Assembly: GCA_019689635.1 (NCBI GenBank)
Contig: JADGHB010000009.1
Location: 2,053 to 66,052 of the forward strand
Reading direction: 5' to 3'
Source of the DNA: Nevskia sp.
Lineage (GTDB): Bacteria > Pseudomonadota > Gammaproteobacteria > Nevskiales > Nevskiaceae
Length of the DNA: 64,000 bases
Shown: positions 52,388 through 64,000 of the stretch, piece by piece
Position numbering within the stretch: the first letter of the stretch is position 1
Layout of the letters: every line of letters starts with the position of its first letter
Notes under the pieces: generated by a model
Databases searched by the model: none
Told to the model about the DNA's origin: nothing
What the model saw: the letters and a program-made list of their open reading frames with translations, nothing else
Made by a program: the position numbers and the translations under genes

Positions 52388-53425
52388 ATGAGTATTTCCC
52401 GCCTGCCGCCGCTGAACGCGCTCCGGGCCTTCGAGGCGGTCGCCCGCCATCGCAGTTTTCGCAAGGCAGCCGAGGAGTTATTCGTCACGCCCGCGGCGGT
52501 CACCCATCAGATCAAGGCGCTGGAGGAGCAGCTCGGAGTCGTCTTGTTTCAGCGCTTGAACCGCCGCATCGAGCTAACGCCTGCGGCCCTGGCCGCGCTG
52601 CCGCGGTTTCGCGATGCGTTCGAAGCGCTGGCGCAAGGGGTCGCGCAGTTGCGCGATCATGGCAAGAAGCCGCGCCTGACCGTGCGCTCCACGCCGACCT
52701 TCGTTTCGCGCTGGATGATGCCGCGCCTGCATCGCTTTCTATCGGCGCATCCGGACACCGACGTGCGCCTGTTGGCCAGCGGCCAGTTGATCAGCCCCTT
52801 GGCTCAGCAGCTCTTGACCGAAGAAGTGGGCGAGTCCGCACCGGAGCCGGACATCCACATCCAGTTCAGCAACGGCCGACCCGAAGGCGACGTCGTCGAC
52901 TTGCTGTTTGCGGTCGAGGTGGTTCCGATGGGTCATCCCCGTCTCCTGCGGGGGGCGCATCCGCTGCGCGAACCCGACGACCTGCGTCATCACACCCTGT
53001 TGCACGGCGATGGTGCCTTGAGCGATCGCAGCCGTTCGGCTTGGGCACGCTGGCTCGCGCACGCCGGGGCCACGCAGGTCGATCCCGAGCGCGGCCTCCA
53101 ATTCGATCATTCCACGCTGGCCTTGGAGGCGGCGGCGGATGGGCTGGGCGTCACTTTGGCCATGCCGCTGCTGGCGGAGGCGGAGCTCAAGCGCGGCGAT
53201 GTCGAGGTGGCATTTACCATCGCCCTGCCATTGGACAAGGCTTACTACGCGGTGACCACTTCTGCCGCGTTGGCGCGGCCGGAAGTGGCGGCGTTCCGGC
53301 AATGGCTGCTGACGGAAGCGGCAGCCGGTACCTCGACCGGCGAAGAGCCGGCAAAAAAAAGGGCCGCGAAGCAGCGCGGCCCGAAGGATCCCATGCGGGA
53401 TCTGGAGGAGACGGTACGGAACTAA
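52388..53425 (+). CDS. LysR-family regulator (GcvA-like)
   Basis: RLPPLNALRAFEAVARH.SF..AAEELFVTPAAV.HQIKALEE motif. Confidence 0.93.
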   Translation: MSISRLPPLNALRAFEAVARHRSFRKAAEELFVTPAAVTHQIKALEEQLGVVLFQRLNRRIELTPAALAALPRFRDAFEALAQGVAQLRDHGKKPRLTVRSTPTFVSRWMMPRLHRFLSAHPDTDVRLLASGQLISPLAQQLLTEEVGESAPEPDIHIQFSNGRPEGDVVDLLFAVEVVPMGHPRLLRGAHPLREPDDLRHHTLLHGDGALSDRSRSAWARWLAHAGATQVDPERGLQFDHSTLALEAAADGLGVTLAMPLLAEAELKRGDVEVAFTIALPLDKAYYAVTTSAALARPEVAAFRQWLLTEAAAGTSTGEEPAKKRAAKQRGPKDPMRDLEETVRN

Positions 53426-53427
53426 GC

Positions 53428-53673
53428 TCAGGCCGCCTTGGCGCGCTTGGACGGGAGGGAGAACTCACACCGGGGGAGGGCCGCCTTGGCAGGCTGAGGC
53501 TGGCCTAGACCAGGGTGCGCGTCGCCTCGAACCGGAAGCGACGCGGTCTCAGTGCAAGCCCGCTCGCGCCGCTGGCGCAAACTGTCGACGAAGATCAGGG
53601 CTAGCAACAGCGCAACGGCGAATACGAACGAACCGATCACGGCATCGAGAAACGGTACGGCCAAGCCATCCAT
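53428..53673 (-). CDS. Small membrane-anchored hypothetical protein (81 aa)
   Basis: AGGAG RBS and a single N-terminal hydrophobic helix. Confidence 0.6.
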   Translation of the reverse strand: MDGLAVPFLDAVIGSFVFAVALLLALIFVDSLRQRRERACTETASLPVRGDAHPGLGQPQPAKAALPRCEFSLPSKRAKAA

Positions 53674-53994
53674 CGGTTTGCTCCTGGTGGGGTCGCCGCG
53701 AGCTGCGGCGACTCGACGCCATGAAATTTACGGGGCGCTACTGCACTGCAACAATTGATATTTCATGCAGCCTGTGTTTAGGAAAGCTAAAGCGTTGGCA
53801 GGGCGGCATCTCCACACTGCGGTCGGCCTCGAAGGCCAAAAAAGCAGGGGCCTCATCCCCAGCCCGCGCGGGGCACTACGGGAAGGATTGGTCCGAGTGA
53901 TCGAGTTCCGGACGGCCGGGCGAGGGAAGGCGGTCACTGTGGAGCGAGCTGGAAAAGACCACGAAGTTTTTTGATGACCCGCTGGAGACGAAAC

Positions 53995-59671: not shown

Positions 59672-60067
59672 ATGAAAGATTACCCCCGTTCTGCGCGGCT
59701 CAACGCGCAGTTGCAGCAGGAGCTGTCCGCGCTGTTGCGCGCCGACGTGCTGCGCGACCCGCGGCTCTATCAGGCCGTACTCACCGTCACCGCTGTGGAA
59801 GTGAGCGCCGATCTCGGCAGTGCGCGCGTGCGCGTGAGCTGGTTGGGCGAGGACCGACGTCTGGAGGAATGCGTGGCGACCCTCAATCATGCCGCCGGCA
59901 AGCTGCGCCACGAACTGGGCTTGCGTTTGCATCTGCGCCATGTGCCGACGCTGCGCTTCGTCGCCGATACCGCATTGCGCGAAGGCGATCGCATCGGCGG
60001 TCTGATCCGCGCCGCGATCCAGGAAGACCACCGGCACGCCATTGAAAGAGGCGATGACGAAAGTTGA
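59672..60067 (+). CDS. rbfA: Ribosome-binding factor A
   Basis: R..RL..QLQQEL, RDPRL, VEVSADL..ARV and LR.VP.LRF..D motifs. Confidence 0.95.
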   Translation: MKDYPRSARLNAQLQQELSALLRADVLRDPRLYQAVLTVTAVEVSADLGSARVRVSWLGEDRRLEECVATLNHAAGKLRHELGLRLHLRHVPTLRFVADTALREGDRIGGLIRAAIQEDHRHAIERGDDES

Positions 60068-60974
60068 GCGCCGCGACCTCGACGGCATCCTGCTGCTCGA
60101 CAAGCCGGCGGGCATGAGTTCGAACGCCGCGGTGCAGGCGGTCAAACGCCTGTTGCGCGCGCGCAAGGCCGGCCACACCGGCAGCCTCGACCCGCTCGCC
60201 ACCGGCCTGCTGCCGATCTGTCTAGGGCAGGCGACCAAGCTCAGCGCCTATCTGCTGGACACCGACAAGCGTTACCGCGCACGAGCGCGGCTGGGTGCCA
60301 GCACGACCACCGGCGACGCCGAAGGCGAGGTGAGCGAGACTTCCGATCCGGCCGCGATCCGTCGCGATCGGCTGGAATCCGCGATTCCGGATCTTTTGGG
60401 CGCAATCGATCAGGTGCCGCCGATGTATTCGGCGCTCAAACGAGACGGTCAGCCGCTGTACCGGCTTGCCCGCACCGGGCAAACGGTGGCGCGTGCGCCG
60501 CGAACGGTCCTGATCCATGAGCTGCGCTTGCTCGAGTTCGACGCCGAGCGCGGCGAGTTCGAGTTCGAAGTGCGCTGCTCTAAAGGCACCTATGTGCGCA
60601 CCCTGGCCGAGGACTGGGCGGCCGCCGTCGGCCAGCGGGCGCACCTGGTCGCGCTGCGGCGCATCGGTCTGGGGAGTTTCACCGCACAAGCGCTGGTGAC
60701 GCTGGAGCAGCTTTCCCTCGCGGCCAAGGCCGGTGAGGCAGAGCATTTCCTCCTGCCCGCGGCGGCGGCTCTCAGCGGCTGGCCGCGCGTTCAGGTCGAT
60801 GCGCCAGCGGCGCGCCGGCTCGCGCAGGGCCAGACGGTCGCCGTGGACGGCGTCGAAGCCGGTCGTGGGGTCGCGATATTCGACCGGCAGGAGCGCCTGC
60901 TCGGCATCGCTCAGGTGACTGCCGATGGATGCCTGCAGCCCCGACGTTGGCTGGCCCCCGCGTCGGCGGCGTGA
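60054..60974 (+). CDS. truB: tRNA pseudouridine(55) synthase TruB
   Basis: DGILLLDKP.G.SSN, KAGHTGSLDPLATG, VPPMYSALK and CSKGTYVRTL motifs. Confidence 0.97.
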   Translation: MTKVERRDLDGILLLDKPAGMSSNAAVQAVKRLLRARKAGHTGSLDPLATGLLPICLGQATKLSAYLLDTDKRYRARARLGASTTTGDAEGEVSETSDPAAIRRDRLESAIPDLLGAIDQVPPMYSALKRDGQPLYRLARTGQTVARAPRTVLIHELRLLEFDAERGEFEFEVRCSKGTYVRTLAEDWAAAVGQRAHLVALRRIGLGSFTAQALVTLEQLSLAAKAGEAEHFLLPAAAALSGWPRVQVDAPAARRLAQGQTVAVDGVEAGRGVAIFDRQERLLGIAQVTADGCLQPRRWLAPASAA

Positions 60975-61062
60975 AGCCGCGGATTGCTTGTGAGAATGCC
61001 ACGGTTCGGCGTAAAATACTTCGTTCACCGAACGAAAGAATAGAGTCTGGAGTCAGTTACTC

Positions 61063-61332
61063 ATGCCGTTGTCTAGCGAACAGAAGCGCGCGGTCGTGGA
61101 AAAATTCCAGCGTGCGCGGGGCGACACAGGTTCTCCGGAAGTGCAGATCGCGCTGTTGTCCGAGCGCATCAACAGCCTCGCCGGCCACTTCGAAACCCAC
61201 AAGAAGGATAACCACTCGCGGCGCGGACTGATCAAGATGGTCAACCAGCGTCGCAATCTGCTCGATTACCTCAAGCGGGAAGACGAGAGCCGCTACAACA
61301 AGCTCATCGCCGACCTCGGCCTGCGCCGTTAA
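61063..61332 (+). CDS. rpsO: 30S ribosomal protein S15
   Basis: [13 protein letters not shown] and [22 protein letters not shown] motifs. Confidence 0.98.
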
Positions 61333-61374
61333 ACGCAGGCTTTTTTCTTTTCCGCTGACCGAATCGAGACCGCC

Positions 61375-63474
61375 ATGGTTTATCCCGTCACGCCCATCAA
61401 GAAATCCTTCCGCTACGGCGCCCATACCGTTACCTTCGAGACCGGAGCCATCGCCCGCCAGGCCACGGCCGCGGTGCTCGTGTCCATCGACCAGACGGTC
61501 GTTCTGGTCACCGTGGTGGCCAAGAAAGAGGTCAAGGAGGGCCAGGAGTTCTTCCCGCTGACCGTGGATTATCTCGAGCGCACTTATGCGGGTGGCCGTA
61601 TCCCCGGCGGGTTTTTCAAGCGCGAAGGCCGGCCTACTGAAAAAGAGACGCTCACCTCGCGCCTGATCGATCGCCCGCTGCGGCCGCTGTTCCCGGAAGG
61701 GTTTTACAACGAGATTCAGGTAGTGGCCACGGTGCTGTCCGCCAATCCCGAGATCGATGGCGACATTCCGGCGATGTTGGGCGCTTCTTGCGCGATGGCC
61801 TTGTCCGGCGTGCCGTTCCAGGGCCCGATCGGGGCCGCCAAAGTGGGCTACGCCAACGGTCAATACATTCTCAATCCGACGGCCACGCAACTTGAAACCT
61901 CGGAGCTCGAGCTGGTCGTCGCGGGCACCAAAGACGCGGTGCTGATGGTGGAGTCGGAAGCCAAGCAATTGCCGGAAGACGTGATGCTCGGCGCCGTGCT
62001 GTTCGGGCATCAACAGATGCAGGTGGCGATCCAGGCGATCAACGAACTGGTCGCCGAGGCCGGCAAGCCCAAGTGGGACTGGCAGCCCCCCGAGTCCGCC
62101 AAGGAACTGGTCGCGGCGATCAATGCTTACGAGCCGCAGGTGGCCGAAGCTTACGGCATCGCCGACAAACAGCAACGGCGCGAGGCGCTCGACGCCTTGC
62201 GCAAGCGCGCGCTCGAGTCGCTCGCCGCCGGAGAAACACCGAAGTTTTCGCCCAATGCCGTCAAGACCGCCTTCGGCGAGCTGGAGGCCCGCGTGGTGCG
62301 CCAGCGCATTCTCGACGGCAAGCCGCGCATCGACGGTCGCGACACGAAGACCGTGCGGCCGCTGGCGATCGGCGTCGGCATCCTGCCGCGCACCCACGGC
62401 TCGGCGCTGTTCACGCGCGGCGAAACCCAGGTGCTGGCGACGGTCACGCTGGGTACCGGCAAGGACGCCCAGCTCATCGACGGCATGGAGGGCGAGTGGC
62501 GCGAACCCTTCATGTTGCACTACAATTTTCCGCCATACTGCGTGGGCGAGACCGGTCGGCTCAATGCGCCCAAGCGGCGCGAAATCGGTCATGGCCGCCT
62601 GGCCAAGCGCGGCATCGCCGCGGTGATGCCGGATCTCGAGAAAGAGTTTCCTTACGTGGTGCGCGTGGTGGCCGAGGTGACCGAGTCCAACGGCTCCTCG
62701 TCGATGGCCAGCACCTGCGCCGCCAGCCTGGCGTTGATGGATGCCGGTGTGCCGATCAAGGCCCAGGTGGCAGGCGTGGCCATGGGACTGATCAAAGAAG
62801 GCGAGCGCTGGGCGGTGCTCACCGACATCCTCGGCGACGAAGACCATCTCGGCGACATGGATTTCAAGGTGACGGGCACCGCCGCGGGCGTCACCGCCCT
62901 GCAGATGGACATCAAGATCACCGGCATCACCGGCGAGATCATGAAGCAGGCACTGGAGCAGGCCAAGGCCGGACGGCTGCACATCCTGGCGGCCATGAAC
63001 CAGGTGATCGACCGTCCGCGTGCCCAGATGTCGGAATACGCGCCGCGCATCACCACCATCAAGATCAACCCGGACAAGATCCGCGACGTCATCGGCAAGG
63101 GTGGCGTGACCATCCGCAGCATCACCGAAGAAACCGGTACCACGATCGATATCGAAGACGATGGAACGGTCAAGATCGCCGCGGTGGACGGAGAGGCTGC
63201 CAAAGCGGCGATCTCGCGCATCGAGGCGCTCACCCGCGAGGTGCAGGTGGGCGAAGTCTACGAAGGCAAGGTGGCCAAGCTCATGGACTTCGGCGCTTTC
63301 GTGACCATCCTTCCGGGCAAGGACGGCCTGGTGCACATCTCGCAAATTTCCGACAAGCGTGTCGAGAACGTGGCGGATGAGCTGAGCGAGGGGCAGACTG
63401 TTCGGGTCAAGGTGCTCGAGATCGACAAACAAGGGCGCATCCGCCTGTCGATGAAAGCGGTTGACGTGACTTAG
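61375..63474 (+). CDS. pnp: Polyribonucleotide nucleotidyltransferase
   Basis: [42 protein letters not shown] and GDMDFKV motifs with KH and S1 domains. Confidence 0.98.
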
Positions 63475-63575
63475 CCGTGCGCGGATGGCACAATCCCGGC
63501 TTGATCTAAGCTGAAGATTTGTTGAGAATCAGCGGGACGCACCGTTCCAAGCCGCGGTCCTGAAAGTACGCGAGC

Positions 63576-63602
63576 AAAAAAAACCCCCTACTCGGTAGGG
63601 GG
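63576..63602 (-). terminator. Rho-independent terminator
   Basis: 8-bp stem CCCCCTAC/GTAGGGGG (63584-63591/63595-63602) followed by U8 on the minus strand. Confidence 0.85.
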
Positions 63603-63702
63603 CAAGGTGCGAGAAAGGCGCAAGGCCTTTCTGGAGGAGACTCTTGCAGCGTTCATACAATCAAGTTTCATACCAAACGCTGCTTTTCGAAACTCATTGC
63701 TG
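63576..63702 (-). ncRNA. Candidate trans-acting sRNA with an exposed CUCCUCC (anti-SD) motif
   Basis: Flanked by a TTGACG-N18-TATACT promoter and a U8 terminator; two internal hairpins; no convincing ORF. Confidence 0.6.
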
Positions 63703-63708
63703 CATTGC

Positions 63709-63738
63709 AGTATAGATGCCGCGGGTACCAGCCGTCAA
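63709..63738 (-). promoter_or_regulatory. Sigma70 promoter with AT-rich upstream element
   Basis: Minus strand TTGACG (63738-63733), N18, TATACT (63714-63709), with an A/T tract at about 63746-63787. Confidence 0.7.
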
Positions 63739-63908
63739 GTGCGGCAATTTAATAAAAACATTAAAAATCAATAATATAAAAATATCTCCCCGACATCTGT
63801 GATGGCCGTCTCGGTGGCGCCCCTGCCATCCGATGGCGTCGATTGCGGGCTTGAAGCCTTCAGGATCGGCGCACGCCCAAGGAGCACGGGTCCTAAACGC
63901 GACGGATC

Positions 63909-63998
63909 TTAGGGTTTGAGGGAGCTGTCGCCGCGGTCGATCAGGGGCTTGATGACTTTGGCGCGGGAGAGGTTTTTCAGGAACTCGCGGCGCACCGA
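63909..63998 (-). CDS. C-terminal fragment of an unidentified protein (runs off the window end)
   Basis: Open minus frame SVRREFLKNLSRAKVIKPLIDRGDSSLKP*, with TAA at 63909-63911. Confidence 0.45.
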   Translation of the reverse strand, partial: SVRREFLKNLSRAKVIKPLIDRGDSSLKP

Positions 63999-64000
63999 AC

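Follow-up and report, generated by a model that had tools for sequence, protein, structure and literature searches.

We analysed a stretch of 64,000 nucleotides from Nevskia sp. (contig JADGHB010000009.1; C80:2053-66052 in our numbering, hereafter called the window; assembly of 2.81 Mb, 98.5% complete, 68% G+C), which carries a small RNA (sRNA) gene of about 126 nt on the minus strand, roughly from 63701 to 63575, located between phaR and the convergently transcribed pnp. Our analysis supports this being a stand-alone, independent and uncatalogued sRNA gene with an exposed anti-Shine-Dalgarno motif, as proposed in a preliminary description of this DNA; the strongest sign is its conservation. 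The features of the locus are given below in window coordinates; the gene calls made by our custom scripts are crude.

61375 to 63474, plus strand: pnp (polynucleotide phosphorylase), an open reading frame (ORF) of 699 amino acids, convergent with the sRNA gene
63575 to 63611, minus strand: linker CGCACCUUG, intrinsic terminator and U8 (terminator scan), with the terminator stem at 63603-63583 and the U8 tail at 63582-63575
63612 to 63632, minus strand: hairpin 2, AGAAAGGC-CUUGC-GCCUUUCU
63633 to 63645, minus strand: unpaired seed AAGAGUCUCCUCC with the anti-Shine-Dalgarno core CUCCUCC at 63640-63634, within the unpaired stretch GUCUCCUCC at 63642-63634
63646 to 63701, minus strand: 5' part of the RNA, consisting of an A-rich unpaired leader (63701-63684) and the variable hairpin 1 (63683-63646), in which GCAGCGUU (63683-63676) pairs with AACGCUGC (63653-63646) in the single-sequence fold
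63695 to 63715, minus strand: whole predicted PhaR-type operator, overlapping the -10 hexamer and the predicted start (about 63703-63701); its core, the TGC-rich box TGCAATGCA at 63709-63701, abuts the -10 hexamer and spans the likely start
63709 to 63738, minus strand: sigma-70-type promoter (promoter scan) with -35 TTGACG at 63738-63733, a spacer of 18 nt and -10 TATACT at 63714-63709
63745 to 63800, minus strand: AT-rich, UP-element-like tract of about 55 bp, read from the sequence, directly 5' of the -35 hexamer
63909 to 64000, minus strand: 3' end of phaR, stop codon at 63911-63909; the gene runs past the end of the window

The promoter, its 18-nt spacer, the AT-rich tract and the box at the -10 and start site, as well as both hairpins, the unpaired anti-Shine-Dalgarno stretch and the terminator with its U8 tail, were all found on the minus strand where the preliminary description had placed them, and the fold matches the one described there. 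The promoter is the sole promoter-like site within 63000-64000 (consensus scan; one site versus 0.3 expected by shuffling). The 131-nt RNA folds with -44.2 kcal/mol (z = -2.64 versus shuffled sequences), the seed being unpaired in both the single-sequence and the consensus fold. No reading frame is conserved, and length differences between homologues are not multiples of three. Two small-peptide candidates were rejected, i.e. a 43-codon TTG ORF (63529-63660), which runs through the terminator, and a 9-codon AUG ORF in the variable 5' part, neither of which is conserved. A sigma-54 promoter was discarded as well, the spacer offering no GG-N10-GC fit and its region being unconserved.

The sRNA is widely distributed in the order Nevskiales. 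When a 176-nt query was run by BLAST against 60 relatives, 60 of 61 genomes yielded the 3' 70 nt, with identities of 75-94% and at most three copies each. A covariance model built from the 3' module of the sRNA (R1) matches 175 of 187 Nevskiales genomes, 145 of the 150 good-quality genomes and 30 of 32 genera, with one to five matches per genome. An exact scan of named genomes for the pattern CTCCTCCAGAAAGGC-N3-8-GCCTTTCTCGCACCTT returned 68 stretches, almost all from Nevskiales-type bacteria (Nevskia, Solimonas, Hydrocarboniphaga, Sinimarinibacterium, Fontimonas, Polycyclovorans, Abyssibacter, Oceanococcus, Stenotrophobium), a few being metagenome-assembled genomes with odd labels. The homologue search near pnp suggested in the preliminary description thus recovers the sRNA in relatives: in about 50 of the 68 named loci phaR lies upstream on the same strand and/or pnp downstream in convergent orientation, giving the order phaR -> sRNA <- pnp, and the remaining loci are extra copies elsewhere, e.g. 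3' of an IcmF-like mutase gene. The neighbouring Pnp proteins share no more than 71-88% identity, yet the sRNA core does not vary. Both phaR and the sRNA occur in 169 genomes and neither in eight, while four and six genomes have just one of the two; as physical linkage on one contig confounds this co-occurrence, we do not use it as independent support. No Rfam family was found at gathering level (cmscan of 60000-64000 in E-value mode), and the literature searched yielded MmgR as the only PhaR-linked sRNA and nothing on small RNAs of Nevskiales. The element represents an order-wide sRNA family that is new, though of a familiar kind, and absent from Rfam.

In the Abyssibacter-type lineage (L040, L061, L084, L021) and additionally at L038, L051 and L057, the space between phaR and pnp is occupied by two or three tandem sRNA genes, all of them with a boxed promoter of their own; the third copy is diverged (about 44 bits). 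Outside the order, eleven genomes from a spread of 400 genomes of the class match R1. One of these loci (L108) retains the phaR-sRNA-pnp order and the box, and in another (L107) the sRNA relative lies 3' of phaR plus a small ORF. Related modules in other gammaproteobacterial families, i.e. L103, L104, L109 and L110 (genomes G288, G470, G406 and G203), lack PhaR and the box and show UCUCCUCC, a covarying hairpin and a terminator; L103, L104 and L109 also carry a linker (A/C)GCACUUG or GAGUACUUG. The occurrence of such modules without PhaR or box suggests that the RNA core either predates its coupling to PhaR or reaches further than this coupling.

All 64 of 64 boxed homologues, from eight families, retain the promoter TTGAC(A)-N17/18-TATACT, while the surrounding spacer varies, and GCAyyGCAACA follows immediately 3' of TATACT in these 64 homologues between variable flanks, with a TGCAnYGCA box at -10/+1. 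Some lineages have a second box flanking the -35 hexamer of the sRNA promoter. The alignment of the 64 promoters shows an AT content of 0.7-0.9 from -60 to -35 and a recurring AAG-N4-TTGAT. A motif YAA-N4-TTGAW lies in the conserved AT-rich tract about 80-95 nt 5' of the start and may be a site for integration host factor, which it resembles. Several Nevskia promoters have an apparent inverted repeat, differing in sequence, on either side of the -35 hexamer (here TGCCGC ... GCGGCA, window 63716-63745, minus strand). In genera other than Nevskia, a conserved GT(A/C)AGT within the promoter spacer and the -35 hexamer together make up an imperfect inverted repeat (e.g. TTGACCGATCGGTCAA), which may be the site of a second regulator.

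The predicted homologous RNAs are 102-152 nt long and have in common an A-rich unpaired leader, a lineage-specific 5' hairpin, predicted in other genera too, an unpaired (A/G)AGUCUCCUCC, hairpin 2, the linker CGCACCUUG and the terminator. In an unbiased alignment of 19 genus members (MAFFT/RNAalifold), hairpin 1 shows double compensatory changes in seven of eight pairs and the seed lies in an unpaired gap. For the 3' module, 97.8% of cells pair and 10 of 12 pairs have double changes in an alignment of 94 matches, which is model-fitted and hence leans towards R1; none of 500 shuffles reaches the observed values, and no slid register approaches them. Compensatory changes occur at all four modelled pairs of the terminator stem, its inner pair being GC in 10 and AU in eight of the 19 genus members. 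Within Nevskiales the stem of hairpin 2 is invariant and its loop variable; the stem covaries only outside the order (GAAAGGAC/GUCCUUUC, GAGAGAC/GUCUCUC). CUCCUCC is invariant in every model match, including those from outside the order, except for the weakest match, L111.

The gene ending at 63909 is phaR. Its full ORF spans C80:65961-66506, the product starts with MNDIRIIKKYPNRRLYD, and it scores 97 bits with Pfam PF07879, 51 bits with PF05233 and 145 bits with NCBIfam TIGR01848 (cut-off 109). This adjacency had not been recognised in the preliminary description and strengthens the link between PhaR and the sRNA. In Sinorhizobium meliloti the PhaR motif WNWD2NYGCRNYGCRNH2WNW was defined from the regulon and confirmed by electrophoretic mobility shift assays with point mutants at phaP1, phaP2, phaZ, SMa1961 and mmgR (PMC12542648). 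The box of the sRNA promoter (T-GCA-A-T-GCA) and the family consensus TGCAyyGCA both fit the YGCRNYGCR core. Among the AT-flanked TGCAnYGCA sites in this genome, those of strongest context belong to the sRNA promoter and, as a double site, to the region preceding a phasin-like gene on another contig:

C39:15380-15930 (L112), plus strand: phasin-like gene with a double PhaR-type box at and just past the -10 hexamer

The phasin-like promoter reads TTGACA-N16-TATGA[TGCACTGCA]caaattgc[TGCGATGCA] and that of the sRNA TTGACG-N18-TATAC[TGCAATGCA], so that the first phasin box abuts the -10 hexamer exactly as the box of the sRNA promoter does. The phasin-like protein reaches 19.7 bits with Phasin_2, below the cut-off of 24.9, matches no NCBIfam model and has a lysine/alanine-rich tail; its gene lies about 1.1 kb from phaC in two relatives, and the double box precedes its orthologue at the same position in 30 of 30 relatives across the order. 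A position matrix was derived from 42 unique foreign phasin-promoter boxes, with no sRNA promoter among them, and run over both strands of the 2.8-Mb genome. The phasin boxes of this genome itself take ranks 1-3 and rank 4, with 25.1 bits, is the sRNA promoter, whose box is thereby the best non-phasin site genome-wide. The TGC-rich box, which had been linked to PhaR before, fits the published core, resembles the phasin boxes and heads the non-phasin matrix matches; by every comparative test available it is a predicted PhaR-type operator.

Two sibling RNAs share these properties. The twelve-mer GTCTCCTCCAGA has only three occurrences in the genome, i.e. in the main sRNA and in the two siblings, each located 60-330 nt downstream of a PhaR-type box, so that this genome has one main copy and two diverged siblings. 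Their features are the following:

53352 to 53418, minus strand: sibling RNA module with the GUCUCCUCCAGA seed, a hairpin GAUCCC/GGGAUC, a terminator and U8
53428 to 53673, minus strand: small membrane ORF of 81 codons, its stop 10 nt 5' of the sibling module
53736 to 53756, minus strand: predicted PhaR-type box TTGTTGCAGTGCAGTAGCG (matrix, 16.7 bits), 5' of the small ORF and the sibling module
C20:51260-51420 (L204:360-520), plus strand: second sibling with the same seed and hairpin and a TATAAAT -10 hexamer

The predicted fold of either sibling consists of an unpaired seed, a hairpin and a terminator (z = -3.95 and -4.56), and the two score 15-18 bits with R1 with filters off, the sibling of the window having z = -3.95 and 15.3 bits (E = 3.7e-4). 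Its box at 53736-53756 shows homology to the promoter of the second sibling, which bears a PhaR-type box (C20:51272) of 23.3 bits, ranked fifth genome-wide. Both loci are also found, box and module preserved, in metagenome contigs from close relatives, and in other Nevskia the loci homologous to the sibling of the window carry a standard family module in the same place (L063, L091). The sibling at 53352-53418 is antisense to the C-terminal tail of a plus-strand LysR/GcvA-like ORF. The second sibling also contains a CCCCUCCCCC stretch; this sibling is conserved in the metagenome contig L206.

Beyond the gene anatomy, conservation, structure, synteny and shared operator, which are seen directly, we infer the binding of PhaR, the direction of control, the involvement of Hfq, and a base-pairing mechanism with its targets. 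We consider it fairly probable that the element encodes a PhaR-repressed, trans-acting anti-Shine-Dalgarno sRNA which works like MmgR without being homologous to it. According to this model, the sRNA would be transcribed from its own sigma-70 promoter, and PhaR, encoded immediately upstream, would most likely bind the TGCAATGCA box and repress this promoter, the position of the box over -10 and +1 implying repression by promoter occlusion. PhaR is classically drawn off the DNA onto nascent polyhydroxyalkanoate (PHA) granules. By analogy, its titration by granules would co-induce the sRNA with the phasin-like protein, as both promoters carry the same box in the same place. Within the RNA, the 5' hairpin of variable sequence would be protective, and the always-unpaired GUCUCCUCCAGA seed would base-pair with ribosome-binding sites of the GGAGG type in a number of mRNAs, thereby blocking translation initiation; that CUCCUCC is never paired and almost never changed, even in distant relatives and siblings, points to such base-pairing. 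The conserved hairpin, the linker and the U-tailed terminator probably form an Hfq-binding body. The genome encodes Hfq, with 87% identity to the E. coli protein over 68 amino acids, and the U8 tail and A-rich leader would suit Hfq binding. The two siblings, whose seed is identical and which likewise follow PhaR-type boxes, would share its targets.

Several observations weigh against this model. The phasin mRNA, a candidate named previously, was rejected as a predicted direct target: across the translation-initiation regions of 30 genomes its seed pairing, a generic Shine-Dalgarno match of 5-6 bp, has a mean of -11.4 kcal/mol versus -11.2 kcal/mol for shuffled sequences. The best ribosome-binding-site match in this genome is that of acs, a 10-nt match CUGGAGGAGA-N5-AUG; acs was rejected as a conserved target, the match being specific to this genome and relatives having GAGGA only. 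A scan of 40 relatives for CTGGAGGAGA-N2-10-ATG gave 137 matches, and among the 30 loci examined no ortholog recurs throughout the order, the genes 3' of these loci being unrelated save for the close-relative pairs L157/L168 and L158/L167. Ranking the translation-initiation regions of this genome by energy yields an alpha/beta-hydrolase-like gene, acs, an NAD-glutamate dehydrogenase-like gene, an EthD-like gene, a porin and an acyl-CoA synthetase as candidates only. A CCUCC seed would fit many ribosome-binding sites and does not by itself account for specificity, and the invariant stem of hairpin 2 within the order hints at a sequence-specific partner beyond a purely structural function. To these points we add the relatives outside the order, other than L107 and L108, that occur in genomes without PhaR and have no box and different promoters, as well as the stretch between phaR and the sRNA promoter and the missing PHA synthase, both considered below.

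The signal sensed by PhaR is a further point to be weighed. We detected no PHA synthase in this genome with the PF07167/PhaC_N and class-III-like TIGR01836 profiles, tblastn with a reconstructed class I PhaC query found nothing in it, and a lipase-box scan for a synthase led only to a wrong-frame ORF, which was discarded. PhaC_N, marking class I/II synthases, is found in only 28 of 61 relatives, most of which have a class-III-like hydrolase below the family cut-off, and no synthase of any class was found in Nevskia soli. PhaR in contrast is present in 173 and the sRNA in 175 of 187 Nevskiales genomes, and the phasin-like gene is also nearly universal, showing that the module is wider than recognisable PHA synthesis. 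As no synthase is detectable here, the classical signal releasing PhaR may be absent. The term "polyhydroxybutyrate (PHB) control", to which the earlier suggestion pointed, may therefore be too narrow for a genome without a detectable synthase. One could envisage that PhaR senses a different hydrophobic storage body in place of PHA, droplets of wax ester or triacylglycerol being an example for such hydrocarbon-associated bacteria, or that it has been repurposed, with the sibling GUCUCCUCCAGA-seed sRNAs as the translational arm of a general "lipid inclusion present" response; we regard this as an unlikely, speculative extension.

Among the rival explanations, a titration of protein has to be weighed with most care. 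According to it the sRNA would sequester Hfq, a ribosomal component or another RNA-binding protein without pairing to mRNAs, the invariant 35-nt core acting as a protein-recognition surface. The order-wide invariance of the hairpin 2 stem and the linker CGCACCUUG, which exceeds structural need, and the failure to find a conserved mRNA target fit this explanation. However, the sole near-universal invariant is the unpaired CUCCUCC seed, siblings replace hairpin 2 by another hairpin, and known RNAs of like build act via their CU-rich region (PMC5688073), so that we judge titration to be quite unlikely. A sponge of the CsrA type in particular is ruled out by the lack of GGA motifs in the loops. 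Very unlikely is also that the element is merely the untranslated 3' tail of phaR transcripts, perhaps trimmed to a stable fragment, with the promoter hexamers unused. The terminator scan found no terminator-like site between the phaR stop codon (63909) and the hexamers, so phaR transcripts probably enter the element and end at its terminator, and some sRNA may arise by such read-through; this is one of the points that count against the preferred model of a separate gene. Moreover, the extra copies L048, L063 and L091 and the sibling at 53352-53418 follow an ORF with no promoter directly upstream. Against an untranslated tail, hexamers, spacing and box are kept in all 64 boxed homologues of the eight families, while the rest of the phaR-sRNA intergenic region is not, extra copies distant from phaR bear the same promoter, and the tandem copies (L038, L040) each have their own. 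The conserved promoter and box therefore speak against the alternative that the preliminary description had named as its refutation, namely that the region is only the 3' untranslated region of the gene ending at 63909.

A service to the convergent pnp gene, either as terminator or roadblock or as an antisense partner formed by pnp read-through with mutual control, would be in line with the convergence being kept across the order and in one outside lineage (L108) and with the weakness of pnp's own terminator-like site (63497-63513). Nevertheless, on the plus strand the hairpin is followed by CAAGGUG and no U tract, making it a poor pnp terminator, other genomic copies do not lie beside pnp, and the conservation of promoter, operator and seed would be left unaccounted for; we give this explanation slightly less credence than the untranslated tail. 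Hardly credible is a spreading intergenic repeat, of the repetitive extragenic palindromic or miniature inverted-repeat transposable element type, that merely carries a terminator hairpin. Although one to five copies per genome, at times in tandem, would be expected of a repeat, these copies are few, synteny of the main copy holds across the order, the core is invariant beside Pnp proteins of 71-88% identity, almost all copies have a promoter and a regulator site, and neither terminal inverted repeats nor target duplications were seen. None of these explanations accounts jointly for the conserved promoter, operator and seed.

Comparison with known systems supports the preferred model of a PhaR-repressed anti-Shine-Dalgarno sRNA and at the same time delimits it. 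MmgR (alpha-r8) of S. meliloti is likewise a small, terminator-ended, sigma-70-transcribed RNA with an unpaired anti-Shine-Dalgarno motif (PMC12542648, PMC8401924, PMC7143759), has a YGCRNYGCR site for PhaR (AniA) near its promoter start, belongs to the same regulon as phasin genes (PMC12542648) and has been proposed to pair with ribosome-binding sites via its anti-Shine-Dalgarno motif (PMC7143759). In contrast to MmgR, which has 77 nt, the RNA described here has 126 nt, is physically linked to phaR and has sibling and tandem copies; no NtrC-type element was recognised, though no search was aimed at one, and many carriers have no recognisable PHA synthase. MmgR further limits phasin production post-transcriptionally and is associated with Hfq, whereas for our RNA the phasin mRNA is not a predicted partner and Hfq binding is a prediction. 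As cmscan of 60000-64000 gave no suhB/alpha-r8 Rfam match at E <= 1 and there is no homology in sequence or structure, the analogy to MmgR/SuhB-type RNAs drawn previously stands for the shared operator and motif and fails as a relationship by descent.

The toxic or double-hairpin RNAs of Betaproteobacteria (RF02278; B. cenocepacia ncS03, ncS05, ncS27, ncS62) also combine CU-rich unpaired stretches complementary to ribosome-binding sites with hairpins and a terminator, and have several dispersed homologues per genome with an upstream motif common to the copies (PMC5688073). They are predicted to act on carbon-metabolism mRNAs, and in Burkholderia an antisense of the CU-rich region reverses the overexpression phenotype (PMC5688073). 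The window however has no match to RF02278, the out-of-order relative L107 reaching 28 bits versus a cut-off of 50; RF02278 RNAs have two hairpins and two CU-rich stretches instead of three hairpins and one stretch, belong to another host lineage, and no link to phaR is described for them. The sole Rfam model aligning to the window is anti-hemB (RF02837; Burkholderia RNA 7, ncS04) with 19.6 bits (E = 0.28). The alignment spans UCUCCUCC, a short hairpin and a C-rich terminator, so that the likeness is limited to generic anti-Shine-Dalgarno and terminator features; scores of 19.6-27 bits stand against a threshold of 49.5, and the genomic context is phaR/pnp, not hemB. NmsR/RcoF of Neisseria, as outlined in PMC5688073, are tandem siblings with CU-rich unpaired regions complementary to ribosome-binding sites of central-metabolism genes; no relation in sequence to our RNA was noticed, and no comparison aimed at it was made. 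They differ in regulator and targets.

As a summary, our data place an sRNA family beside phaR in a bacterial order with cultured carriers such as Nevskia soli, Hydrocarboniphaga effusa, Solimonas, Fontimonas and Sinimarinibacterium. The invariant 12-nt seed, the sibling copies and the predicted operator make it a tractable experimental case, and with the family added to Rfam these genomes could be annotated better. As it also occurs where no PHA synthase is recognisable, one may ask which signal PhaR responds to in such bacteria. MmgR is the only PhaR-controlled sRNA in the literature searched, and the Nevskiales family, unrelated to it, is yet wired alike and coupled to phaR. This extends the MmgR-type control scheme, known from rhizobia, to a whole gammaproteobacterial order and suggests an RNA arm being a recurrent, independently evolved part of the carbon-storage regulon.

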